From assembly GCA_016882195.1 (NCBI GenBank), contig VGLU01000004.1:5572-69571 (forward strand): DNA of 64,000 nucleotides. The letters are read 5' to 3'. The position numbers were made by a program, and so were the translations under genes. Positions 1 to 52,229 of this stretch are shown here, piece after piece. The notes beneath the pieces were generated by a model, which was not told the DNA's origin, did no database searches, and worked only from the letters and a program-made list of their open reading frames with translations. Source of the stretch: Thermoproteota archaeon. GTDB taxonomy: Archaea > Thermoproteota > Methanomethylicia > Methanomethylicales > Methanomethylicaceae. Position 1 is the stretch's first letter, and every line of letters begins with the position of its first letter.

Positions 1-464
1 CGATTGAAAATAGGGAAGCGATCGTTATCGAAGATATTAAAGGAATACGCAAGTTGTATCAGAAGGGCAACGGTCAGGGTCGCAGATATAGGAGTATGAT
101 GAATTCTTGGTCATTCGGAGAAGTTCAGAGACAGATAGAGTACAAAGCAAATTGGTCAGGCATCCCAATTATTCGCCTAACAAAAGGCGAGACGATGGGC
201 ACCTCAACCATCTGTCCAATATGTGGGGAGAGACTTCTGAATGGACGGAACAGGATGTTGTGGTGTATTTCATGTGGTATGAAAGCGGATCGAGATGTGG
301 TTGCGGTGATCAACCAGTCTCGAAGGGGACGGGTGAGGTTCGCACGTTCCCTGCCCACTGATAAAGGGGCGAAAGGCGGGGCAGTTGAAGCTGTGATGGG
401 GAACCCGACGACTACGGTAATCCTCGGAGTCGATGCCCTGAAGTTGAGTCATCAGAAGACTTGA
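1..464 (+). CDS. tnpB: IS200/IS605-family TnpB (OrfB) C-terminal part; 5' end lies off-window
   Basis: C-terminal zinc-finger/RuvC-III region (CPICGERLLNG...WCISCGMKADRDVVAVINQ). Near-identical at protein and DNA level to the C-terminus of the full TnpB at 42063..43283. Confidence 0.8.
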   Translation, partial: IENREAIVIEDIKGIRKLYQKGNGQGRRYRSMMNSWSFGEVQRQIEYKANWSGIPIIRLTKGETMGTSTICPICGERLLNGRNRMLWCISCGMKADRDVVAVINQSRRGRVRFARSLPTDKGAKGGAVEAVMGNPTTTVILGVDALKLSHQKT

Positions 465-890: not shown

Positions 891-1976
891 CTATCGGGTT
901 ACGGGCTGTACCAGAGCAGCCCCTGACGCAGAGATATGCCCTGCGCGCCGTTGCATTATGTTGTATGCTCCATTGTAGTCAGCGTTGTATTCGTGTCCGC
1001 AACTATTGCATTTGAAGAGGCCTCCGACCCGAAGGCCCCTCTCGCCACAGTTGTGGCAGGTCTGAGAGGTGTATGCTTCAGAAATCTTCAGGACCGGTAC
1101 GCCGAACCATTCAGCCTTGTACTTGATGAATTGATAAAGCCTGTAGAATGGAAAGCTATTGAGCTTTCTGTTGAAGGTTCTGCCGCTTCTGTTTGTTCTT
1201 ATTCCTTTCAGGTCTCCTATCACTATGGCTGAATTGTTCCTGTATGCCTCATTGACTATCCTCCTGCTTACTGTGTGGAGGATTGAGTCGGTTGCACGCC
1301 TCTCGCGGTTGGATATCTTCTTGATTGCTCCGTACGCCCCTTTCCTCTGCAACTCCTTTCTTAGCTTGTAGAAGTGTGAACGGACTTTCCTCAACTCTTT
1401 GCCGTAGAATTTCGGCCTGATATCATTTGAATTGATCGTAGTTGCTATGTTTCTTATCCCCATGTCTACGGCGAGTATTGACTGCGGTCTTCTTTCTTCG
1501 ATTTCCTTCTCTACAGTGACATACACATACCAGTCCGAGCCGCGCCTGATGAGCTTGGCCTCCCTTGTCCTCGCTCCTTCTGGAATCGGTGAGGAGGTGG
1601 CTATGGGAACATTGATTCCTCCCCTCTTGCCTGCTACGGGAATCCTCATCCAGTATGGAGTCAGCTTCGTTTCTTCCCTATGCAAATCATAAACATCGTT
1701 CCTGAGGATTATCGGGTACTCCTTGTCTGGATCAAGTCTACCACAGTTCTGCCTCCTCAATCTGTTGAGGAATCTATCGGCCTGTTGCTTTGTTGCGGAG
1801 CAGAGCTCTGCTGACTTATGCCCACGGAGGTAGCGTTGAAAACTCAGATACTCCTGTTCGAGGAGGAGCCTTTTTCCCTCTCTCAATTCAAGAATCTTTG
1901 CCTTTACTGTCTTCTTTGCTATCACAGGCGGCCTGTCCTCAATTGTATGAAGGATATTTAAGCGCATTTGTCCCAC
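891..1976 (-). CDS. tnpB: TnpB-like (IS200/IS605 OrfB) protein, second subfamily
   Basis: 361 aa with a C-terminal zinc finger CHNCGERG...CNSCGHEYNADYNGAYNI and a RuvC-like core. No tnpA nearby. Confidence 0.8.
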   Translation of the reverse strand: MGQMRLNILHTIEDRPPVIAKKTVKAKILELREGKRLLLEQEYLSFQRYLRGHKSAELCSATKQQADRFLNRLRRQNCGRLDPDKEYPIILRNDVYDLHREETKLTPYWMRIPVAGKRGGINVPIATSSPIPEGARTREAKLIRRGSDWYVYVTVEKEIEERRPQSILAVDMGIRNIATTINSNDIRPKFYGKELRKVRSHFYKLRKELQRKGAYGAIKKISNRERRATDSILHTVSRRIVNEAYRNNSAIVIGDLKGIRTNRSGRTFNRKLNSFPFYRLYQFIKYKAEWFGVPVLKISEAYTSQTCHNCGERGLRVGGLFKCNSCGHEYNADYNGAYNIMQRRAGHISASGAALVQPVTR

Positions 1977-19503: not shown

Positions 19504-19638
19504 TTGGACCCCTCCATCGTCTCTTATCGCGCTTGAATCACTTCAGGCCTCTGATTTATGAACATGAAGAGGGATATAGAGTTTCCTCTGGGTTAAACCT
19601 TATTATAGTGAGATGTCCCTCTCTCTTTTGGTGAGAGT

Positions 19639-20691
19639 ATGGGAGCCACGGTTCTCGTTGGCGGCTTCTTCGGAGACGAGGGGAAAGGCGAGGCGCATTA
19701 GCGTTCGCCCCCCATAGGAAAGATAGCCGCCTATTTGAGCCGTAATGACAACTACAAATTAGCGGTAAGAACAGGCTCGATCAACGCGGGCCACACCCTT
19801 GTATACGGGGGAAGGGAGATAAAACTGCGGATCGTTCCTTGCGCCTTCGTTAATAAGAGCACCAGGCTTCTCGTCGGTGCGGGCGCGCTTTACAGCATCG
19901 AGACCTTCATGAAGGAGGTGGAGCTCACCGGAACGAGGGGCAGGATAGGCGTGGACGTGAACAGCGGGATCATACTGCCGGAGCACATGGCGAGGGAGAG
20001 GAAGGACGAGTTCCTGATGAAGGAGGTGGGATCCACCGGCTCCGGCGTCGGGTCAGCCATGGTGGACAGGGTATCGCGCCTGCTAAAAATGGCCAAGGAC
20101 TTTGAGGAGCTCAAGCCCTTCATCACGGACGTCTCTGGGGAGGTTCAGGATTGCATGAAGGATGGTGGAGGCGTGCTCATAGAGGGGACGCAGGGACTGT
20201 ACCTCTCGCTCTACCACGGGGGGTACCCGTTTGTGACAAGCAGGGACGTCTCTGCCTCCGGCGTATGCAGCGAGGTGGGTGTTGGGCCGAAGGATGTCGA
20301 TAATGTGATCGTGGTGTTTAAGTCGTACGTGACGCGGGTCGGAGGCGGACCGCTCGAGAGAGAGCTCCCTGAGGAGGAGGTTGCGAGGAGGGGCTGGGTG
20401 GAGATAGCCTCGGTCACGGGCAGGAAGAGGAGGGCCGCGCCCTTCAACTACGAGCTGGCCGGGAGGGCCGTCAAGATAAACTCGGCGACGCAGATAGCCC
20501 TGACAAAGCTGGACACGGTCTTCCCAGAGTGCAAAGGGATGACCAGATACGATGGGCTCTCTGACAGGGCCAAGGGATTCGTCAAAGAGGTCGAGAAGAA
20601 CTTGGGCGTCCCGGTCACCATAATCGGAACAGGGCCTGGTACTCTGGACGTGGTTGACAGAAGGCCAGTTGTGACATCCTCCCCAGCCTGA
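19639..20691 (+). CDS. purA: adenylosuccinate synthetase (short archaeal form), interrupted by an in-frame TAG at 19699-19701
   Basis: ATG 19639 gives MGATVLVGGFFGDEGKGEAH-TAG-RSPPIGKIAAYLS...SINAGHT in one frame. Downstream motifs are intact (GSTGSGVG, TQG, VTGRKRR). The track ORF 19735..20691 lacks the P-loop. Confidence 0.7.
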
Positions 20692-23032: not shown

Positions 23033-24982
23033 TTATCTGGGAGCGCCTTCCAGGCGCCTCCGGATCTCCTCCTTGAGCAACTCATGGAGTACCTTGCCGC
23101 CGACCTTCCCCCTGAAGGTCTTCATCAGATCGCCCATCAGCGGGCTTAGGGCGCGCTCGCCGTCCCGCCTTATCCTCTCCATGTTCCTGCCCACCAGCTC
23201 GGCGACGGCGGCCTTTAGCGCAGCGGTGTCCACCGCACCGAGCGAGAGAGCCCTCGTGGCCTCCTCAATGCTCCTTCCCCTGTTGGACGCGAGCCACCGG
23301 AAGATCTCGGCCACGGCCTCCTTTGCAACCTCCCCCTTGTGCACCCTTATCAGGACATCCCTGATCTGCCCCTCCTCCAGCGACTCCACGTCTATCCCCT
23401 CCCGCTTCAGCATCTTTAGGGTGTACTCGAAGGTCGCTGCGACGAAGGAGGGTGCCAGCCCATCAGATTTAACGAGCCTCTCAAAGGTTATTGCGTAGGG
23501 CGAGTCGACTATTAACGCGGCGAGGTCCTTGCTCAGCCCGTACTCCTTTATGTACCGCTCCGTTCTCTTCTCCAGAAGCTCCGGGAGATCCCTCCTTATT
23601 TTGTCGAGCAGGTCTGCACCAACGACTATGGAGGGGACGTCGGTCTCGGGGTACATCCTGGCCGAGCCTGGCATCGGCCTCATGAAGTGGGTCGTGCCAT
23701 CTGGATTGAAGGCCCTCACCTCGCCGGGGACGCCCTTCAAAGCCTCCGATGCCCTCATGACAACGGCATTCAGAGCGACCGAGCCGACCGCTGCCTCGGC
23801 GGCGACGAAGACCACGGCGTCGTTCTCGGTGGCACTGACCTTCTTCCTCAACCCCCTAAGATCCTCCTCCGTGATGCCGTAGGCGGGCAGCTCGTCTGTG
23901 TGGAATATGCCGCCGACCCCACCGAAGACCTTTGCGTGGTCTGAGAGCTCCATGCCGAACCTCCTACCCGGCTGCAACTCCGTCTTGAGGAGACCACCGT
24001 AGCCTGGCAGGAGGACGGCCTGCACCCTTCCGCCGGACTCCAGGGCCTTTTTTATAACCTTGCCGTTCGAGGATGAGAATACGTCGGTTACGTCCACGAC
24101 CTTGGGCCTTGGGGCGGTTACGCCCCTCCTCTTCAGCTCCTCCCTCAGCAGGAGTAGGTTCCTCTGCCTGGTGACCTCGTACTCCACCACGGTTGAGATG
24201 AGGCCCAGCTCTTGGACGCCCTTCACCTCGATCCTCGTTCCTCCCTCTATGGAGATGTTCAGATCCTGCCGTATGGTTCCCAGCCCCCGCTTCATCCTCC
24301 CGGTTGCCTTCAGGATCCTGCCGAGTTGGAGGGCGACGCGCTCGGCCTGCTCCCCGCTGTGGATGTCCGGTCCTGTTGCGATCTCCACGAGGGGAATCCC
24401 GAGGCGGTCAAGCCGGTAGGTCATCATTTCGGGGGTATCGGAGATCTTCCTCGCGGCATCCTCCTCGAGGCAGAGGGACTGCATGGTGATCCTCTCCTCG
24501 CCGTCCATGAGCCAGCCGTCAAACGCGATCTTGGCGGTCCGCTGAAACCCGGTGGTGTTGGAGCCATCTATGACGATCTTCCTCATCACATGTATCTCGT
24601 CAACGGGGGTCATGTTCAGGAGCGCCGCCACCGTTAATGATATGGAGACCGCGTCCCTGTTCAGGTCGTGGGGCGGCTCCTCGTCGAGCTCCACGAGGCA
24701 GACTGTATCGTTATAGCCCTGGTAGCAGAAGGTCCTCCTCCTCTCTGACTCGAAGAGCGCCGCCCTGTCGAGATCCCCGAGCTCGCTGTATGTCGGCTTC
24801 AGCCTCCTCAGGATCGAGAAGTGCGGATCCTCCTCCCTGAGAACGGTCGGGCAGCCGCAGAAGAGCTTCTTGGGGGTGTCGAGCTGCTGGTGAATCTCTA
24901 TACCCACTTTGATGTGATGGTTGACACTCTCCACGGCTAAAGCCGGGAGATTCCTGCCTCTAAAGGCTTCATGACCATTCAT
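23033..24982 (-). CDS. gatE: Glu-tRNA(Gln) amidotransferase subunit E
   Basis: GIEIHQQL...LFCGCP GatB-like core plus archaeal insertion. True start probably ~24934; the ORF N-terminus overlaps the TnpB stop. Confidence 0.85.
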   Translation of the reverse strand: MNGHEAFRGRNLPALAVESVNHHIKVGIEIHQQLDTPKKLFCGCPTVLREEDPHFSILRRLKPTYSELGDLDRAALFESERRRTFCYQGYNDTVCLVELDEEPPHDLNRDAVSISLTVAALLNMTPVDEIHVMRKIVIDGSNTTGFQRTAKIAFDGWLMDGEERITMQSLCLEEDAARKISDTPEMMTYRLDRLGIPLVEIATGPDIHSGEQAERVALQLGRILKATGRMKRGLGTIRQDLNISIEGGTRIEVKGVQELGLISTVVEYEVTRQRNLLLLREELKRRGVTAPRPKVVDVTDVFSSSNGKVIKKALESGGRVQAVLLPGYGGLLKTELQPGRRFGMELSDHAKVFGGVGGIFHTDELPAYGITEEDLRGLRKKVSATENDAVVFVAAEAAVGSVALNAVVMRASEALKGVPGEVRAFNPDGTTHFMRPMPGSARMYPETDVPSIVVGADLLDKIRRDLPELLEKRTERYIKEYGLSKDLAALIVDSPYAITFERLVKSDGLAPSFVAATFEYTLKMLKREGIDVESLEEGQIRDVLIRVHKGEVAKEAVAEIFRWLASNRGRSIEEATRALSLGAVDTAALKAAVAELVGRNMERIRRDGERALSPLMGDLMKTFRGKVGGKVLHELLKEEIRRRLEGAPR

Positions 24983-26231
24983 GGTAGTTCCACCTCAAGG
25001 GCAGGGGCTGTGCCATCAGCCCGCTACCGCTGGTCTTCCCTTCATATGAGTCTGTGCTAAGGACTGGGGGAGACCTTTTCACGGCTACGTTCAATATGTT
25101 TACAGCACCGTTGACGTCGGCGTTGATGCTTTTATGCTTCTCACGGCAGATCATCAGTCCCCTTTCTATCCTGCCGTTGTGCTGTTTTCCGCACAGGCAG
25201 CATGTCCTCGACGTATCCCTCTCAGAGACTTTCTTAACGATTATGCCGTACTCTTCTCCAAGTTCAAGGATACGCTTGACGATTTTGTCGTAGGCCCAGA
25301 AGAGATGTAGCTTCTGATTTCCTCTTTTGCCGTGGTTTGCCTCTTCTCTGATTCCGTTGAGGTCCCCGATGTAAAGTTCACTCACGTTCCCCTGTTCCAA
25401 ATGCGAAAAGATGCTCCTTAACATGGCGTTTATTGCGTGCTTCAGCCTTCTCTGTCTTCTCCTAAACTGAAGCCGAATACGTTTGGATGCGTGTCTTTTT
25501 CGTGGGAGTTTTGACTGCTTATCCGCTATCTCCTTTGTATGGTAAATCCAGTCTGAGAGAACTGCTCTGCCAGAGTAGATTATTGGTCTCTCGCCCTCTA
25601 TATAGAGGGTTGCAAGGTTGCATATGCCCAGATCCAAGGATGCCTTTTTGGCATCGGTTTGACTCCGACTCGGAGGCTGCCAATCAACCTCGACTGGGAT
25701 ATGGGCATACCACCTCCTGTTGATCTCATCTTTTATGACTTCTAATCGACCCCACTTACCCACCCACAGCTCTCCGCATTGATAGGGAATCCTGTTTCTG
25801 GAGATTGAGATTTCTTTTTCGTTCATTCTCCAGCCGTCGTTTCTAACGTAGAACGCCTTCGCCTCTCTTTTTCCGTTTCGCTTCCAATATTTTGGTGGAC
25901 GTATCTTGCGAATATGTGGTGGTAACTTTCCCTTTTTCTTGAGTCTGAGAAGGGCATGGAAGCTCTGCCAAGCCTCATTAAGTTTTGAAAGCAGAGCCTG
26001 TGCCTTACAGGTTCCAAGTTTCTTGAAGGGTTCAGTATGTTTAAGTTCTCTGCATTGAAGAGCGTAAGAAGGCATTTTCATATGTTCGTAGAAGGCTTTT
26101 CTACGCTCATAGTTTGCAATGTTCCATAAGATGGCTGACTGTTCAGCGTATTCACTAAGTGATTGTGTATCGGTGGGTTTGAGGAGAACCGTTGAGGTCC
26201 TTAGCACGTTTAATATGTTCTCAGAGCCCAT
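24969..26231 (-). CDS. tnpB: TnpB-like protein inserted between gatD and gatE
   Basis: 420 aa, RuvC-like core plus zinc finger RTCCLCGKQHNG...ICREKHKSINADVNGAVNI. Confidence 0.8.
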   Translation of the reverse strand: MGSENILNVLRTSTVLLKPTDTQSLSEYAEQSAILWNIANYERRKAFYEHMKMPSYALQCRELKHTEPFKKLGTCKAQALLSKLNEAWQSFHALLRLKKKGKLPPHIRKIRPPKYWKRNGKREAKAFYVRNDGWRMNEKEISISRNRIPYQCGELWVGKWGRLEVIKDEINRRWYAHIPVEVDWQPPSRSQTDAKKASLDLGICNLATLYIEGERPIIYSGRAVLSDWIYHTKEIADKQSKLPRKRHASKRIRLQFRRRQRRLKHAINAMLRSIFSHLEQGNVSELYIGDLNGIREEANHGKRGNQKLHLFWAYDKIVKRILELGEEYGIIVKKVSERDTSRTCCLCGKQHNGRIERGLMICREKHKSINADVNGAVNILNVAVKRSPPVLSTDSYEGKTSGSGLMAQPLPLRWNYHEWS

Positions 26232-26299: not shown

Positions 26300-27616
26300 T
26301 CAGCCCCTTTCCACATCAATGAAATCACTGCGTTCCGACAGCTCTCCCGCGATGTTCTTCAGGAAGAGCTCGCGGATCTTCTCGGGCTCGTCGGTCTGAC
26401 CCAAGACCCACATTAGCTTCACGAGGGCGGTCTCCGGGAGCATGTCTCCCGCGGGGATGACGCCCATGTTGAGAAGCTCCCTGCCGGTGCTGTAGACGTT
26501 CATGTTCACCCGCCCGTACAGGCACTGGGAGGCCATGACCACGGTCAGGCCGCTCTGAATCGCCCTTCTTATCGAGGGGAAGAGGCTCTCTGGCAGGTGC
26601 CCGAGACCGGTTCCCTCGAGGACTATGCCGCGGAAGCCCCTGTGGATTACGGGGTCGAAAATGTCTGGGGGCACCCCCGGGAAGGACTTGATTAGCACCA
26701 CGTCCTCCTCGAAGTTTGCCTTGAGCTCGAGCTCGCCACCGCCCCTCCTCCTGTACCCGCCGTAGGTCTCTATCTTGCCGTCCTGAACCCTGGCGAGGGG
26801 GAGGGCGTTTACAGAGGCGAAGGCGTCCCGCCGGCTCGTGTGCAACTTTCTTACTCTTGTGCCCCGGTGAACTACGAGGCTCGAGTCAGAGCTGCCCCCG
26901 TGCATTAGCACGCCGACCTCGGCGAAGGGGGCCCTCGCGGCTGCAAAGACGGCGCCCTTCAGGTTCAGATAGGCGTCCGAGGAGGGTCTGTCCGATGAGC
27001 GCTGGGAGCCGACCAGAATAACCGGTACAGGAAGGTTACTTAGGGCGAAGCTCAGCGCCGCGGCCGTGTACCCCATGGTGTCGGTGCCGTGCGTTATCAC
27101 GACGCCCTTGGCACCGTCCTTTATGTGGTTGGACACGGACCTCGCCATGGATCCCCAGTTCTCTGGAACGATGTTCTCGCTGAGGACGCTCAGAAGGATC
27201 TCGGTCCTGATGTCCGCCAGATCGCCCAGCTCAGGCACGGACTGGTAGAGGTCCCTCGCGGAGAGGGCCGGGCTCACCGCACCGGTCCTGTAGTCCACCT
27301 TGCTCGCGATGGTCCCGCCGGTGCTTATAATGGAGACCTTCGGCAGGCTGGGGTTGGACTTTGCCTCGAAGGGGGGCGGGCTTATTTTTGACTCCTCGGA
27401 GGGGAGCTTCTGGACGACTAATCCCTCTATGGAGAGGCCGATGTTGTAGCCGTCGTCGAGCTTCAGTATGAGGTGCTGGTCGTCGTCCAGCTCTGACCTC
27501 GGCATCAGGATTCCGGAGAAGGAGATCCTCTCGTTTTTGGCGAGAACCCTGTCGCCCACTTCTAGGCCGTGTTTCTTTATGAGCTCCAGAACCTTGCCTT
27601 TGTAACCAGAGACCAT
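26300..27616 (-). CDS. gatD: Glu-tRNA(Gln) amidotransferase subunit D (asparaginase-like)
   Basis: TGGTIAS, HGTDTM asparaginase motifs; 438 aa. Confidence 0.9.
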   Translation of the reverse strand: MVSGYKGKVLELIKKHGLEVGDRVLAKNERISFSGILMPRSELDDDQHLILKLDDGYNIGLSIEGLVVQKLPSEESKISPPPFEAKSNPSLPKVSIISTGGTIASKVDYRTGAVSPALSARDLYQSVPELGDLADIRTEILLSVLSENIVPENWGSMARSVSNHIKDGAKGVVITHGTDTMGYTAAALSFALSNLPVPVILVGSQRSSDRPSSDAYLNLKGAVFAAARAPFAEVGVLMHGGSSDSSLVVHRGTRVRKLHTSRRDAFASVNALPLARVQDGKIETYGGYRRRGGGELELKANFEEDVVLIKSFPGVPPDIFDPVIHRGFRGIVLEGTGLGHLPESLFPSIRRAIQSGLTVVMASQCLYGRVNMNVYSTGRELLNMGVIPAGDMLPETALVKLMWVLGQTDEPEKIRELFLKNIAGELSERSDFIDVERG

Positions 27617-38443: not shown

Positions 38444-41400
38444 CTACTGGGAGAAGAATTCCAGTCTCTTTATCCCCACGATCTCATCGAATTCTATGCC
38501 GAGAGCCTCGAGGACCTGCCCGAAGGTGGACTCTATGTGTCCCACGTATTTGTCCACATCGATCTCGTCTATCCTTGCCAGCTGGACCGGCTTAACGCCC
38601 AGGCCGCCCTGAACCTTTACGAAGGAGATTATGTCGCCGGGCTTGACCTCCTTGCCCTTATCCTCCAGCTGTTTTGCCGCCTTCACGTGCTGGGGCGTCG
38701 TCTTATGGTAGCCGGTGAGCGGCCTCGAGAGCATCACCTTGAAGGTCAGCTCGTCCAGGGAGAAGCGCCTGTTCTTAAGCCTTGTGTAGCAGTTCTGCAC
38801 GATCCCCTTTATCCTCGCCTTGGCCCTCGCGAAGTCCTGCGGGGTCTTTACCTCCTTCAGGACCTGGGTCATCTCCCCGAATGCGGACTGGATGAAGACG
38901 GGGGTGTTCCGCTTCTTCCCCATCAGCCCTTTTATGTCCACCACGCCGTTGTCCATGACGCCGAGGTAGTTCTTCTTCCTTCCGGAGAAGGTAACGAAGG
39001 TGTACCTCTTGTCCACCTCGAGGTCGATGCCGAAGCTTGATTCCGCCCAGCTGAGGAGCGCTCCTATCTGCTCCTTGGTGGGCTGGTACAAAAACAAACT
39101 ATCGGTGTCGGCATATATCACCTTGACTCCGGATTCTGTGGCCTTTTTGATGGTCTCAGTTATTATGTGCCTGCCTATGGCGGTGGTGCTGTCGGCCATC
39201 GAGAGGCAGTAGAGCGGGAATATCTCCGCACCGAAGACTCCGTAAGACTGCCCACAAGGGATTAATCTGCCATTGCGGCCAGCAAAGACAGTGTGGTTCT
39301 TTTTTGTAGTTATACAGTAAACTTGTCCATTGTATGGCATCTTAGTTTTTTTCCAATGATCTGTGTGTTGATTTATGTTTCTCCAAGTTATTCTAAATAG
39401 CTTAGCACCCTCATCATAGAATCGCCTTGATGAAGAAGCAGATGATGTCTTAAGCTTCGGGACGACGAAGTCTATCGCGTTGTATATCGCCTCTGCTGTA
39501 ACAAACCTGACTCCCCCGTTTTTATGGTCTGCGACAATGAATCTATGTTCTGGAGTGACGATCAGATCAGTAGATCTTCCGTTCTTGAAATGTAATAGAT
39601 CACCATTATAGTCGAATACCTGTGTCTCCACAACCTCGTCCACTTCTGGTTCGAGGGTAGCCGGATTTACGTTGATTACTTTGTCACCAATGTTGATATC
39701 CTTTACATTCTTTACACCATTGGTTGTGAGTATATCGGTGTCGCCTGTGAAACAAGCATTGAGGAAGACCTTAAGGGCCTGTTGCACGACCTTGTACCAG
39801 TCCCTCTCCTCCTGGGTGAGGGCGGGATCCTTGGACTTTGCCTTGAACCACTTCACCCTGACATCCTTCAGCAAGCCTATGATCAAGGCCATCAGCCCCA
39901 GCCGCTTTGTGCAGACCCAGTGTTTTGTGTCCGGGACCACGTTGGTCCGGCAGGACTCGTGGACGCACCTTACGGTCTCGTAGCTGAGGTTCCACTTTGC
40001 GATTATGCTGGGGTACAGGCTTGCAAAGTCCAGGACGACCACATCGAAGTAGACGTTGGACTCGGGCTTTATGACTATGGCGCCGTGGTACTTCTTCCCC
40101 TTGATCACCGCTGTTGTGGAGGCCTCTCCCTTCATGGCTTCTATGTCGCTCTCGCGGGGTATCAGACAGTTTCTTGCTCTGTGCTCAAAGAAGAATAGGC
40201 CCCTTATCCAGCGGGATATCCCTTGGCGCGTTACGTCCTCCATGGAGAGACGGGAGATCCTCATTATCATGGTGATGAGGTTCATTACCATGTTTGAGTT
40301 CTCGGTGGTAAGGCGCAACGCTATGAGGGAGTCCCTGAAGCAGTAGGACGCCAGGTCAAGGTAGCTGAGCTCGGAGACGGTCTTCTCTATCTGGATCTTC
40401 TTGATATTGAGGAGGGAGCTTGCCACGGCGTCGAGGGCGACCTCCCTGTATGAGTTTCCGAAGGCGTAGATCTGTATGGCGTGGTTGTGCATGAACTTGT
40501 AGAGGTCTATGTGTACCCCTGTGGGGAGGAGGGCGATCTCCCTTCCCATTATTATGGGGACCTCCTCCTTCTTCATGCCCAGGACCTGCGCGCGCCGCCA
40601 GAGGTAGTGGAGGTCGAAGTTGTCGCCGTTGAAGGTGATCACGATCGGGTAGTCCAGGAAGTACTTGAAGAGGAGCTTTATGAGGGACAACTCCTCCTCG
40701 AAGTACTCCAGCTGAACATCTTCCGGGAGTTCTGGGGGCCTGATGCCCTCCTCCACACCCATCCTCTTGAGGAGGAGGACCTTCCTCAGGCCGTCCGATC
40801 CAGCGAGGGATGCGCATATCACTTGGTTCCTGGCCACGCTCGGGTCAGGGATCCTGTCCAGCGCCTCCGTGGCCACCTCGATATCCACTGCAACGCGGCG
40901 GTAGTCGGGCACAGGGCTGATGAAGAGCGGGAACCAATCTGTGAGGGCGCTGAGGAGCTCGGGGGGTGACCTCTGGAATCTCTCCCTTATCGGCTCGAGA
41001 GGGACGGAGGGATCCTCCTTGACGAGGTTGCCGTCCTTTATTCGGTAGGAGTATCCCGGGATGAGCCCACGGTCGTAGATGTAGCAGTCGTGGTACCGGA
41101 TGTTGTCCTCCCAGGAATTCTGCAGAAGGTCCCTTATGTTGCGCCCACGGCCTCCTATGGAGAGGGGATCCCTGGCAACGACCTTTGTCATCCCTATCCT
41201 CTTGTCGTGGAGGGGGTCGTACTTCTCCACCTCTACTGTAGATTTTCTGTCGAAGCCGGGGTGGGATGCGATCTGCCTGTCCGAGAGGACCTCCTTGAGA
41301 GGAGTGTCGGTGAGGCAGTAGGGGAGGTGTCCTGTGTTGTCGTACCAGAAGACGGTTTTGCCCTTCTCGAGATCGTAGAGTTTCAGCAGCGCCTTGGCCC

Positions 41401-41704
41401 TGGAGCCGCTGTACGTGACGGAGAGCAGGGAGAGGGGACCCGCATTCTTTGGGGTCTCGGCCTCGAAGATGGTCCTCTCGACGACCTCCTCCTGCTCGGG
41501 TCCCTCGGCATACTCTTCTGGCCCCAGTTCCTCCGGCTCTGCCTCCACTTCATCGTAGGGCTCTTCTTCGGGATACTGCCCCTCCCTCTGGGAGGTTTCC
41601 TCGGCTTTCTCTGCCTTGACAGGTTCCCTCCGGGGGCTCTCGGGGGGCTCGGATGGTTTCGAGTCTCCCTTCTTGCCGGGCATGAACCTATCAAGACTTA
41701 CCAT
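38444..41704 (-). CDS. polB: family-B DNA polymerase containing a mini-intein in motif B and an acidic N-terminal extension
   Basis: Exo I VAVDIEVATE, motif A LDFASLYPSII, motif C IYADTDS. Motif B is split as KVFLNA|intein|SYGVFG. Confidence 0.9.
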   Translation of the reverse strand: MVSLDRFMPGKKGDSKPSEPPESPRREPVKAEKAEETSQREGQYPEEEPYDEVEAEPEELGPEEYAEGPEQEEVVERTIFEAETPKNAGPLSLLSVTYSGSRAKALLKLYDLEKGKTVFWYDNTGHLPYCLTDTPLKEVLSDRQIASHPGFDRKSTVEVEKYDPLHDKRIGMTKVVARDPLSIGGRGRNIRDLLQNSWEDNIRYHDCYIYDRGLIPGYSYRIKDGNLVKEDPSVPLEPIRERFQRSPPELLSALTDWFPLFISPVPDYRRVAVDIEVATEALDRIPDPSVARNQVICASLAGSDGLRKVLLLKRMGVEEGIRPPELPEDVQLEYFEEELSLIKLLFKYFLDYPIVITFNGDNFDLHYLWRRAQVLGMKKEEVPIIMGREIALLPTGVHIDLYKFMHNHAIQIYAFGNSYREVALDAVASSLLNIKKIQIEKTVSELSYLDLASYCFRDSLIALRLTTENSNMVMNLITMIMRISRLSMEDVTRQGISRWIRGLFFFEHRARNCLIPRESDIEAMKGEASTTAVIKGKKYHGAIVIKPESNVYFDVVVLDFASLYPSIIAKWNLSYETVRCVHESCRTNVVPDTKHWVCTKRLGLMALIIGLLKDVRVKWFKAKSKDPALTQEERDWYKVVQQALKVFLNACFTGDTDILTTNGVKNVKDINIGDKVINVNPATLEPEVDEVVETQVFDYNGDLLHFKNGRSTDLIVTPEHRFIVADHKNGGVRFVTAEAIYNAIDFVVPKLKTSSASSSRRFYDEGAKLFRITWRNINQHTDHWKKTKMPYNGQVYCITTKKNHTVFAGRNGRLIPCGQSYGVFGAEIFPLYCLSMADSTTAIGRHIITETIKKATESGVKVIYADTDSLFLYQPTKEQIGALLSWAESSFGIDLEVDKRYTFVTFSGRKKNYLGVMDNGVVDIKGLMGKKRNTPVFIQSAFGEMTQVLKEVKTPQDFARAKARIKGIVQNCYTRLKNRRFSLDELTFKVMLSRPLTGYHKTTPQHVKAAKQLEDKGKEVKPGDIISFVKVQGGLGVKPVQLARIDEIDVDKYVGHIESTFGQVLEALGIEFDEIVGIKRLEFFSQ
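39248..39754 (-). other. 169-aa mini-intein (no homing-endonuclease domain)
   Basis: Begins CFTGDTDIL (block A), has TPEHRF (block B) and VYCITTKKNHTVFAGRNG (block F). Ends ...LIPCGQ followed by Ser. Removing it restores K-x3-N-A-S-Y-G. Confidence 0.7.
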
Positions 41705-42004: not shown

Positions 42005-43273
42005 TTTTGTAAACTTTTCGTTGGATTTAAATACATGACCAATTGTTGGGAAACCATAATTTGTGATAGCTATAAAGAGTGTAAGGCAACGTTACATTCC
42101 ATCATGTATAATACTATGCTTAATGGAGCAATTCAGACTCATGATCAATGAGTGTATAGAAATAGGTATGACGAGTAACATTTCTTCGCTGAAAGCGCTC
42201 TCTATGAGGGCATATCATAAACTTGAGCCTTATAATGTGCCATCTTACTACAAGCTTTGTGCCATTTCAAGAGCGGCAGTGATTCTTACGTCAAGAAGGA
42301 AGTCGCTACGAAGGGGCATGCCGACTAAGAGCCCTTACGTCATGCGGCGGCATCTTACCTCATGCTATGGATTCAAATTCATCGGTAATGCTATAAGAAT
42401 ACCGGTGGGGCATAGAGAGTTCTTTGAAATTGAGTTAAACAAACACACTCAAGAGATTCTCTCCGACCCTGCCTTGAGGGTGCGTTCCTTTACACTAACG
42501 AACACCCATTTGAGCATCTGCTACTCGAAGGATGTTCAGGAACTGGAATGTGCAGATATCGCTGGCTTGGACAGAAATCTGAGAAACATCACCTATGGCA
42601 ACGATCAGCATGTAGTAAAATACAACCTATCAGAAGCAGTTAAGATAGCCAGGCGGACGAGCAAGATCATTGCTTCCTTCAAAAGGAAGGACATGCGGAT
42701 AAGGAAGAGGATAGCGTCGAAGTATGGACGGAGACAAAGGAACAGGGTCAACCAACTGCTTCATAATACAACCAAAGACATTGTTGAAAGGGCGTTTGCG
42801 AAAAGGGAGGCGATAGTTCTTGAGGATATTAGAGGCATTAGGAAATTGTATCGAAAGGGAAACGGACAAAGTCACAGATACAGAGGCATAATGAACGCTT
42901 GGTCATTCTGCGAGGTGCAGAGACAGATAGAGTACAAGGCGAAATGGAAAGGCATCCCAGTAATGCGCCTATCCAAAGAGGAAACTATGGGCACCTCCAC
43001 CCTCTGCCCGATATGTGGGGAGAGACTCCTGAATGGGCAATATATTAGCCGCCAGTTGTGGTGTCCTTCATGTGGAATGAAAGCAGACCGGGACATAGTT
43101 GCTGTATTAAATCAATCGCATAGGGGACGGGTGAGGTTCGCCCGTTCCCTGCCATGTGATGATAAGGCGAAAGGCGGGGCAGCTGAAGCTATGAGGGGGA
43201 ACCCTCTACGGATGGAGGTAATCCTCAGAGTCGATGCCCCGAAGTCGAGTCATGATAAAGACTTGACAGAACC
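42005..43273 (+). mobile_element. complete TnpB-only IS200/IS605-family element copy C
   Basis: Left-end motif TGTAAAC..TCGTTGGATTTAAATAC (shared with 12535-12563), tnpB, right end ending CTTGACAGAACC. Lies 38 nt upstream of a tRNA gene. Confidence 0.65.
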
Positions 43274-43283
43274 TAAGCTTTAA
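42063..43283 (+). CDS. tnpB: TnpB (IS200/IS605 OrfB)
   Basis: 406 aa with RuvC-like core and zinc finger CPICGERLLNGQ...WCPSCGMKADRDIVAVLNQ. Confidence 0.85.
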   Translation: MIAIKSVRQRYIPSCIILCLMEQFRLMINECIEIGMTSNISSLKALSMRAYHKLEPYNVPSYYKLCAISRAAVILTSRRKSLRRGMPTKSPYVMRRHLTSCYGFKFIGNAIRIPVGHREFFEIELNKHTQEILSDPALRVRSFTLTNTHLSICYSKDVQELECADIAGLDRNLRNITYGNDQHVVKYNLSEAVKIARRTSKIIASFKRKDMRIRKRIASKYGRRQRNRVNQLLHNTTKDIVERAFAKREAIVLEDIRGIRKLYRKGNGQSHRYRGIMNAWSFCEVQRQIEYKAKWKGIPVMRLSKEETMGTSTLCPICGERLLNGQYISRQLWCPSCGMKADRDIVAVLNQSHRGRVRFARSLPCDDKAKGGAAEAMRGNPLRMEVILRVDAPKSSHDKDLTEPKL

Positions 43284-45969: not shown

Positions 45970-46061
45970 TGGCGGGCCCGGAGGGATTCGAACCCTCGAC
46001 CATCGACTATCTCCGAGATCACCGGAGGCCGACGCCCTGATCCAGACTAGGCCACGGGCCC
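45970..46061 (-). tRNA. tRNA-Arg(CCG) with a 13-nt intron at canonical position 37/38
   Basis: Acceptor GGGCCCG, U8, D-arm GCCU/GGGC with A20, anticodon stem UCGGC/GUCGA, loop CU-CCG-G[intron UGAUCUCGGAGAU]A, T-arm GAGGGUUCGAAUCCCUC, discriminator G, encoded CCA. A 3-nt bulge AUA contains the 3' splice site next to a CUCC/GGAG helix. Confidence 0.8.
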
Positions 46062-50911: not shown

Positions 50912-52229
50912 GTGGAGCTATACTCAGAAAGAGATGACGCCATTCAAATGAGCCATCCCTGGAGGACAAGGGGGGAGAAGAGGACAATAGCCGTAGAGTA
51001 CCAGCCGAGCGAGGAGATCCTGAGTTATCTCACTGACATGAGGGATGCGCTGAGGATGGCCCTCGTATACGCATATGTCATGGCAAGGGAGGACGACAGC
51101 AGGCTCCCAGGCCCTATAGCATTGAGGAGGAGGTTCAGGGAATGGTTCTACCCCCGATATGGCTATGCCAGGCACCACATCAGCCCCCTATGCAGAAATG
51201 CGGTGGCTTTGCTCAGGTCCTACAAGAAGAAGCATAAGAGGCTTGAGATACCTGAAGTTAAGAGGCTCGCAATGAGGATAGATGCAGAACTATTAAAGAG
51301 AGAGCAGGGAAATGATGGTTCAGTATCCGTCAGGATAACACTTCAACCATTCAAGTATGAACATATCACGTTTACCCCGAGGCACAAGAGGTGGGAGGAG
51401 TACAATAAAGGAAGGGCATCCGAGCTTCTGATCACAGATAGGAGGCTATACATAACCTTCGTTACCAACGGTGGGAAGAAGGAAACCCCTTGGTAGCAGG
51501 TTCGTTGCCTCAGACCTCAACTTCAACACAATAGACTCGACCGTGGCATCAAAGGAAGGTGAAACAGTCAAGCTCCGGCAGGCGAGGACAGAGCCTATTG
51601 GCAGAATCGCAAGGATACAGAACGACTTCTCAAGAAGGAGAAGAAGGATACAATTACATATAAAGAACCCGAAGAAGAGAGCGAAGAAGCTCAAAGAGAC
51701 GAGGGGGAGGCAGAGGAACAGGATAAGGGACGCTCTCCAAAAGCTCTCAGCTGAACAGGTGAGAGAGAATCCTGGCGCATCATTCGTCTTCGAGAGGCTG
51801 ACCAGGATAAGGGAGAACGATAATGCAAAGAGCAAGAAGCTTCGAACATACTTGAACAGATGGCCATACCGGATGTACCAGTCAATGGTGGAGTACAAGT
51901 CCACCTTTAGGACCGTATACGTGAGCCCAGGAGGGACCTCATCGAGGTGTCCCGTATGTGGTGGTAAGGTAAGGCACCCAGCCTGGGCTGTGAGCAGGTG
52001 CGAGAAATGCGGCGCAGACTACGGCAGGGACAGGCTTTCCTCGCTGGAGATACTCCTCCGTGGTATGCGCCTGTGCGGCCAACCGTTTGCCGTGAGTGCG
52101 GATGCCTCCTGGCGGCTTATGAGGGATGAGTACCTGTACGCTCCTGCCGTGCCTGACGGCTGGAGGGCAGGATGGACCGAGGCTGCCAACGCTCCGAATG
52201 GGAATGTATATGAAAATATACATTCCTAG
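50912..52229 (+). pseudogene. tnpB: TnpB-like gene (third subfamily) split by a frameshift near 51470-51500
   Basis: N-terminal half 50912-51496 and C-terminal half 51471-52229 (RuvC-like core plus SRCPVCGG...CEKCGADYGRDRLSSLEIL zinc finger) lie in different frames. Confidence 0.6.

Follow-up and report, generated by a model that had tools for sequence, protein, structure and literature searches.

A predicted bulge-helix-bulge intron in the P-loop coding sequence of purA in Methanomethylicaceae and Nezhaarchaeota-like archaea

An intron in the pre-mRNA of crenarchaeal cbf5 was reportedly described by Watanabe and colleagues in 2002, and since then no other archaeal gene has become known with a bulge-helix-bulge (BHB) intron inside its coding sequence. 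In Desulfurococcales and Sulfolobales the cbf5 intron is 16–44 nucleotides (nt) long, forms an unconventional BHB, splits the codon of the catalytic Asp, has been gained and lost in a lineage-specific manner and has been misannotated by genome projects (Yokobori et al., 2009, PMC2738675). Cleavage between bulge residues 2 and 3 is the rule for archaeal introns, that of cbf5 included (PMC2738675). Haloferax volcanii HVO_1309 contains a 46-nt BHB intron in its 5' untranslated region (Schwarz et al., 2020, PMC7714728); the literature searched held no further mRNA case. A 2023 review speaks of no fewer than two genes in archaea with such introns and expects that more probably await discovery, and a survey of circular RNAs in S. 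solfataricus revealed no additional spliced coding intron. In the literature we searched, no report links purA/adenylosuccinate synthetase, or Methanomethylicia/Verstraetearchaeota, with a BHB intron. Here we analyze a 64,000-nt stretch of a Methanomethylicaceae genome (contig VGLU01000004.1, hereafter the window) in which purA, the gene for adenylosuccinate synthetase, is interrupted by 30 nt at 19686–19715. This insert is very probably an archaeal BHB intron of the purA pre-mRNA.

Read from the ATG at 19639, the frame gives MGATVLVGGFFGDEGKGEAH, a TAG stop codon at 19699–19701 and then RSPPIGKIAAYLS; written out in parts it is MGATVLVGGFFGDEGKG-EAH-stop-RSPPIG-KIAAYLS, so that the P-loop stretch reads GDEGKG-EAH-TAG-RSPPIG-KIAAYLS. 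A preliminary description of this DNA had pointed to this in-frame TAG within the P-loop region, and the sequence is as described there. The only open reading frame (ORF) called mechanically for purA starts at a TTG at 19735 and encodes 318 residues with the P-loop lost, again as had been noted; the adenylosuccinate synthetase encoded by the remainder is intact (PF00709, E 4.5e-66). Homologs and the solved P. horikoshii PurA (2D7U) bear out that short archaeal PurA proteins pass from GDEGKG directly into (S/K)I(V/A)AYLS. In alignments with insert-free homologs and with 2D7U, the roughly ten extra codons of the preliminary description amount to exactly 30 nt. Removal of 19686–19715 creates the junction GGGGAA/AGGAAAG and yields GDEGKGKIAAYLS within a PurA of 340 residues with the P-loop GDEGKGK, which aligns to 2D7U without gaps (E 1e-94). 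A Shine-Dalgarno-like GGTGA lies at 19630–19634, upstream of the exon 1 ATG, and a similar GGTG is found in the relatives inspected. By the Nei-Gojobori method on 17 sequences, the ratio of nonsynonymous to synonymous differences per site (pN/pS) is ~0.20 in codons 2–7 of exon 1 (pS 0.64, pN 0.13) and also ~0.20 in the body of exon 2 (pS 0.78). Both exons are under purifying selection; exon 1 is therefore kept as coding sequence, and only removal of the insert joins it in frame to exon 2.

The insert and its flanks fold in silico into the core of a BHB (Table 1). Minimum free energy (MFE) folds of a 47-nt and an 86-nt piece both contain the succession GGGG, 3-nt bulge, hairpin, CCCC, with a local fold of -20.7 kcal/mol (z -3.2). 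The GGCG...CGCC hairpin of the preliminary description is real and forms part of this larger structure. We propose that the exonic GGGG pairs with the intronic CCCC to make the 4-bp helix of the BHB, that the tRNA splicing endonuclease (EndA) would cut each bulge after its second nucleotide, and that an RtcB-type ligase would join the exons into an mRNA for a normal 340-residue adenylosuccinate synthetase with GDEGKGK. Unspliced mRNA would give a 20-residue peptide or a protein lacking the P-loop, and nothing else.

Table 1. Positions of purA parts, predicted RNA elements and other mapped features in the window.
Feature	Position	Strand	Remarks
purA exon 1	19639..19685	+	15 codons + 2 nt, MGATVLVGGFFGDEG-K(AA); ends after 2nd nt of 5' bulge
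Predicted intron AGGCGAGGCGCAUUAGCGUUCGCCCCCCAU	19686..19715	+	30 nt, predicted excision from pre-mRNA
purA exon 2	19716..20691	+	TGA stop included; starts with 3rd nt of 3' bulge, completing Lys16 codon
Distal exon-exon helix, 5' arm GGCGGCUUCU	19660..19669	+	RNAalifold columns 5-14 with columns 66-76
Central 4-bp helix, 5' strand GGGG	19680..19683	+	exonic: last nt of Glu codon + Gly codon; MFE folds, RNAalifold
5' bulge AAA	19684..19686	+	helices close both sides; cut predicted between 19685 and 19686
Inner hairpin GGCGA-G-GCGC-AUUA-GCGU-UCGCC	19687..19709	+	encloses in-frame TAG 19699-19701
Central 4-bp helix, 3' strand CCCC	19710..19713	+	intronic
3' bulge AUA	19714..19716	+	A-N-A in all loci; cut predicted between 19715 and 19716
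Distal exon-exon helix, 3' arm AGAUAGCCGCC	19721..19731	+	MFE folds, RNAalifold; closes junction
tRNA-Arg	45970-46061	-	sole tRNA in window; 13-nt intron 46009-46021 at canonical 37/38 position
TnpB-like ORF	54-461	+	
TnpB-like ORF	894-1976	-	
TnpB-like ORF	24972-26231	-	
TnpB-like ORF	42063-43280	+	
TnpB-like ORF	51471-52226	+	

To place the window among its relatives we surveyed 161 sequences, made up of 160 fetched loci and the window itself. The insert occurs at the identical site in dozens of independent assemblies, drawn from JGI, ENA, NCBI and Logan and belonging to Ca. Methanomethylicaceae/-ales, "Thermoprotei B19_G17" and Nezhaarchaeota-like genomes. There are 27 distinct interrupted sequences, with inserts of 16, 17, 18, 22, 28 or 30 nt, and their common form is [G/A]GGG - AAA - hairpin - CCC[C/U] - A-N-A. 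The 3' strand is CCCC or CCCU in every variant, the remaining intron sequence is variable, and a 3-nt 5' bulge closed on both sides is present in all 27. A single cleavage rule, applied in silico, restores an intact PurA frame with GDEGKGK in 27 of 27 sequences and thus across six length classes; the restored proteins have 332–341 residues where the whole gene is present (locus L096 ends at a contig edge). In a tally of 26 sequences plus L177, 13 of the 27 insert lengths are not divisible by three, and an in-frame stop is found in each of the inserts whose length is. A motif scan found no insert in 118 of the 161 sequences, and tblastn found none in the others inspected. Insert-free lineages include other Methanomethylicia, Culexarchaeia, Desulfurococcales, Sulfolobales, Nitrosopumilales, Bathyarchaeia and Asgard.

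These orthologs also fix the ends of the insert. The bounds 19690–19719 of the preliminary description give the right protein in the window and fail in L001, L083, L086 and L096, where an Asn or Asp codon follows AAA; in L001 the result would be GDEGKNK. The bounds 19686–19715 taken from the structure work at every locus.

An in-frame stop in an essential motif has, in a single genome, the appearance of a freshly inactivated pseudogene; an assembly or sequencing artefact was considered along with it. Recurrence at one site in dozens of independent assemblies argues against both, as does the lack of further lesions in any locus; pN/pS is ~0.2 in both exons, and the insert evolves under base-pairing constraint (see below). 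We give these explanations next to no weight. The same is true of decoding of the TAG, whether as pyrrolysine or by read-through, to give a PurA with ten extra P-loop residues. Methanomethylicia are methylotrophic methanogens in which pyrrolysine machinery could exist, and the insert of the window is in frame with a single TAG. However, TAG closes 22 of the 56 long ORFs in the window, more than any other stop codon, and TAG-ended ORFs stop where their Pfam domains end (ArgRS 648/648, BirA 320/321, CTP synthase 560/567), so TAG is an ordinary stop in this genome and is not avoided. In orthologs, insert lengths of 16, 17, 22 and 28 nt disrupt the reading frame; the TAG sits within an insert missing from homologs, and in relatives the insert is out of frame. 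The "peptide" encoded by the insert is not conserved as protein, its changes being compensatory at the RNA level, and it would fall inside the GTP-binding P-loop, where the solved PurA is gap-free. Among the four candidates listed in the preliminary description, the evidence thus refutes pseudogene, artefact and read-through and strongly supports the tiny spliced element.

At 19699–19701 in the window a UAG straddles loop and 3' arm of the hairpin, with two nucleotides at the end of the loop and one at the start of the arm. A UAG so placed recurs in L001–L006, L043, L074, L095, L128, L164 and L170. It is present in the 16-, 17-, 18- and 30-nt classes and absent from the 28-nt and 22-nt classes. 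This recurring UAG may be a selected stop for unspliced mRNA, or it may be a structural feature (a C-G-closed NNUA loop).

The nearest PurA homologs come from metagenome-assembled genomes of Candidatus Methanomethylicaceae, Methanosuratincola and Methanomethylicus. Nearly all are annotated as N-truncated proteins (300–318 residues) without the P-loop or with a frame-shifted N-terminus, since the predicted intron is invisible to gene callers. Misannotated records in NCBI and JGI (P0001–P0036, P0129, P0154–P0164 and others) number in the dozens; they are truncated to about 312–318 residues or have shifted N-termini such as "LAASSETRGKA..." and "MRGKASKSPPRGK...".

Covariation was examined in an alignment of 13 Methanomethylicaceae sequences. 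RNAalifold independently recovers both helices, central and inner, together with the 3-nt bulge, with double changes in seven pairs. Compensatory changes are seen at 7 of 7 inner-helix pairs, and none of 500 shuffles (0/500) reached the observed covariation score. In register, 92% of cells pair, compared with 43–61% when the partner strand is slid. The hairpin arms vary together, as GGCGA/UCGCC, AACAGC/GCUGUU, GGUGG/CCACC, GACGG/CCGUC, GGCAAG/CUUGCC and GGCAGCU/AGCUGCC. The inner helix of Methanomethylicaceae is thus maintained by compensatory change, whereas the short type of insert (16–18 nt, with AGGG as the 5' strand) is uninformative here, its pairs being invariant. The 4-bp helix between the splice sites is paired in 100% of the 13 Methanomethylicaceae sequences and in 95% of the short type; overall, 97% of short-type cells pair in register and 33–71% when slid.

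Constraint extends into the flanking exons. GAG GGG is invariant in 12 insert-bearing Methanomethylicaceae sequences and variable in insert-free genes. In these 12 genes synonymous differences over codons 7–22 come to a fraction of 0.18, while the median for the gene is 0.54. Of 324 sixteen-codon segments only one is lower (0.179), and it overlaps this one, starting at codon 8. In two insert-free clades the same codons lie close to the value for the gene as a whole (0.41 against 0.45 and 0.52 against 0.60). Gly17 is the sole free codon of the frozen stretch, and it sits in a predicted unpaired stretch. Part of the freeze corresponds to the distal exon-exon helix, whose codons are synonymously frozen in the insert-bearing Methanomethylicaceae sequences analyzed and not in insert-free clades. 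In L170 (18-nt intron) and in L177–L179 (28-nt intron) the flanks are GGTGGA...GCATCA and GGAGGT...ACAGCT, respectively, and the distal helix is impossible; it is therefore auxiliary and not required for intron retention.

A hairpin that contains a stop and follows soon after a Gly codon, with a gap not bound to multiples of three, superficially resembles phage T4 gene 60, where the ribosome hops over the insert. Such translational bypassing would leave the invariant 4-bp helix, the 3-nt spacing and the A-N-A bulge unexplained. Matched take-off and landing codons, which a bypassed insert should have, are found in just 3 of 26 sequences; Lys16 is followed by a codon for Gly, Ala, Asp or Asn, and the take-off codon does not have the stop next to it. 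We know of no case of translational bypassing in archaea, and we consider it highly improbable here. A group I or group II intron and an intein were rejected, the insert being 16–30 nt long with stops or frameshifts and having no Rfam match. A repeated mobile element was likewise rejected, as the sequence occurs once in the window.

The predicted BHB intron is thus supported by its architecture, its exact register, conservation and covariation over 27 sequences, frame restoration in six length classes, purifying selection and exon-flank constraint. From these we infer cleavage and ligation in vivo, with EndA and RtcB as the likely enzymes. The core geometric and evolutionary features of a BHB intron are present, while the strict outer helix is missing.

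Several observations weigh against this assignment, and the first concerns that outer helix. In the strict form (hBHBh') an adjacent outer helix closes the 3' bulge; here the A-N-A bulge is followed by a 7-nt single-stranded stretch, and closure comes from the distal helix alone, with none in L170 and L177. With no adjacent helix at the 3' bulge, the motif is a relaxed, bulge-helix-loop (BHL)-like form, as reported for cbf5 (PMC2738675). Such a motif needs an endonuclease of broad specificity. Enzymes that accept relaxed motifs are the (alpha-beta)2 type with the Crenarchaea-specific loop and the epsilon2 type, and relaxed motifs are known substrates of crenarchaeal (alpha-beta)2 enzymes. From the literature, an (alpha-beta)2-type EndA would be expected in Thermoproteota. 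In a Pfam scan of 55 ORFs, neither EndA nor RtcB was found in the 64-kb window.

The short-type clade is a further weak point. Its helices are invariant and its fold energies are not significant, and RNAalifold, run on five of its sequences, did not recover the BHB and preferred other pairings. For this clade the BHB assignment rests on compatibility and on frame restoration across three lengths. The shape itself is also common: a loose descriptor that asks for a 4-bp helix, a 3-nt bulge and a hairpin has 539 matches in the window, compared with 537 ± 19 in dinucleotide shuffles. A generic scan for helix, bulge and hairpin was accordingly dropped, both as evidence and as an intron finder. Since the shape is common by chance, its significance lies in the exact register with the protein-defined insert together with conservation and covariation across genomes; by our own arithmetic from the descriptor counts, exact register with an independently defined insert has a chance of roughly 1e-4 per position and length. 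Finally, spliced full-length forms were absent from ten clusters of truncated PurA proteins. One uninterrupted record on a short contig, P0008/L176, was considered as a spliced transcript and rejected: it is genomic, with a convergent neighbor gene, cluster members on 9–14-kb contigs and differing synonymous sites.

The 3' site without a canonical closing helix, and the lack of EndA and RtcB among the window ORFs scanned, could also point to removal at the RNA level by other enzymes, either another nuclease with a ligase or a structure-specific editing activity. There is no specific support for such a route. In their 3-4-3 geometry, cut positions and size (16–30 nt) the inserts fit EndA substrates, among them the cbf5 introns of 16–44 nt with unconventional BHBs. 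We regard removal by other enzymes as improbable, if less so than bypassing.

How does the predicted purA intron compare with the systems already described? Like the cbf5 intron, it is a very short coding-region intron (16–30 nt in purA, 16–44 nt in cbf5) with a relaxed BHB and a predicted cut after the second bulge residue. Both split a codon of a catalytic motif (Asp in cbf5, the P-loop Lys in purA), and their lengths are often not multiples of three. Both have a lineage-restricted distribution with secondary precise loss, and both are routinely misannotated by gene callers. In contrast, cbf5 encodes an RNA-modification enzyme and purA a metabolic enzyme, with no sequence relationship between the two, and the cbf5 intron belongs to Crenarchaeota whereas that of purA belongs to Methanomethylicaceae and a Nezhaarchaeota-like clade. 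In most Methanomethylicaceae a distal exon-exon helix and a synonymous freeze accompany the purA intron. A difference that counts against the purA case is that cbf5 splicing is backed by cDNA and in vitro data, and that of purA is predicted from sequence. In HVO_1309, as in purA on our reading, a BHB marks the mRNA as a substrate for the archaeal splicing endonuclease (PMC7714728). Its intron lies in an untranslated leader where no frame is interrupted, and it comes from a euryarchaeon with an alpha2-type enzyme.

The window provides its own comparison in the intron of tRNA-Arg. There the central helix is CUCC/GGAG and the 3' bulge is AUA, and the same cleavage rule leaves a normal 7-nt anticodon loop. 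Geometry, cleavage rule and the AUA 3' bulge are shared with purA. The two differ in which side is closed: the tRNA has its 3' bulge shut by the anticodon stem and its 5' site in a loop, whereas purA has a fully closed 5' bulge and an open 3' site. The products also differ, being a tRNA in one case and an mRNA in the other. BHB-guided splicing gives this tRNA the anticodon CCG; ARAGORN had assigned TCG at position 30, inside the anticodon stem.

In a neighbor-joining tree of the spliced proteins, insert-bearing sequences form two clades. The Methanomethylicaceae/-ales clade has the GGGG type, cut after the second nucleotide of the Lys codon. The second clade, comprising L043 (labelled Nezhaarchaeota), L056, L095, L128 and "Thermoprotei B19_G17" (L074/L160), has the AGGG/CCCU type of 16–18 nt, in which the cut is shifted by one nucleotide and follows the first position of the Lys codon. 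The two clades may reflect one old gain or two gains, both of which are compatible with the tree. Three insert-free orthologs (L161, L162 and L172) nest within the Methanomethylicaceae clade with identical synteny (F420 ligase, purA, small ORF) and retain the GGCGGC...GCCGCC flank codons of the insert-bearing genes, a pattern that looks like precise intron loss. The likewise insert-free L176 has the same synteny and has drifted at exactly the frozen sites (GAA GGC AAA GGG ... GCA GCC), as would be expected if a constraint at the RNA level lifts after intron loss.

The window contains other features that are separate from purA. Five ORFs resemble TnpB/IS605 OrfB (Cas12f1-like TNB domain), some of them fragments, and one lies between gatE (23036–24982) and gatD (26303–27616). 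The adjacent ORFs 50912–51496 and 51471–52229 (+ strand) are in different frames and together have the length of a TnpB. This split TnpB was considered as a second BHB interruption, and nothing convincing was found at the junction; it is probably a plain frameshift. The 1086-residue family-B DNA polymerase at 38447–41704 (- strand) has a weak intein-splicing/Hint match at residues ~651–807, below the Pfam gathering score, and this segment could be a mini-intein.

Could the intron be more than a tolerated relic? PurA spends GTP to make AMP, and under the proposed mechanism it would be made only after an EndA cut and GTP-dependent resealing by RtcB. The intron could then act as a control point that gates AMP synthesis by RNA-processing capacity or GTP status, with the near-universal stop or frameshift of the insert and the distal helix silencing unspliced mRNA and shielding the motif from ribosomes. 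Taken as a whole, we consider this proposal speculative and rather unlikely.

If the BHB intron is real, purA would be the second archaeal gene known with such an intron inside its coding sequence and the first that encodes a metabolic enzyme. It would also be the first case in methanogenic Thermoproteota (Methanomethylicaceae) and in Nezhaarchaeota-like archaea. A systematic annotation error follows from the insert, with dozens of public PurA records that lack the GTP-binding loop, and a screen of conserved genes that are seemingly truncated and carry the 3-4-3 motif suggests itself. The 27 natural variants, with two positional and phase types and clear losses, would offer material on the gain, retention and loss of such introns and on what cleavage of a relaxed BHB needs.

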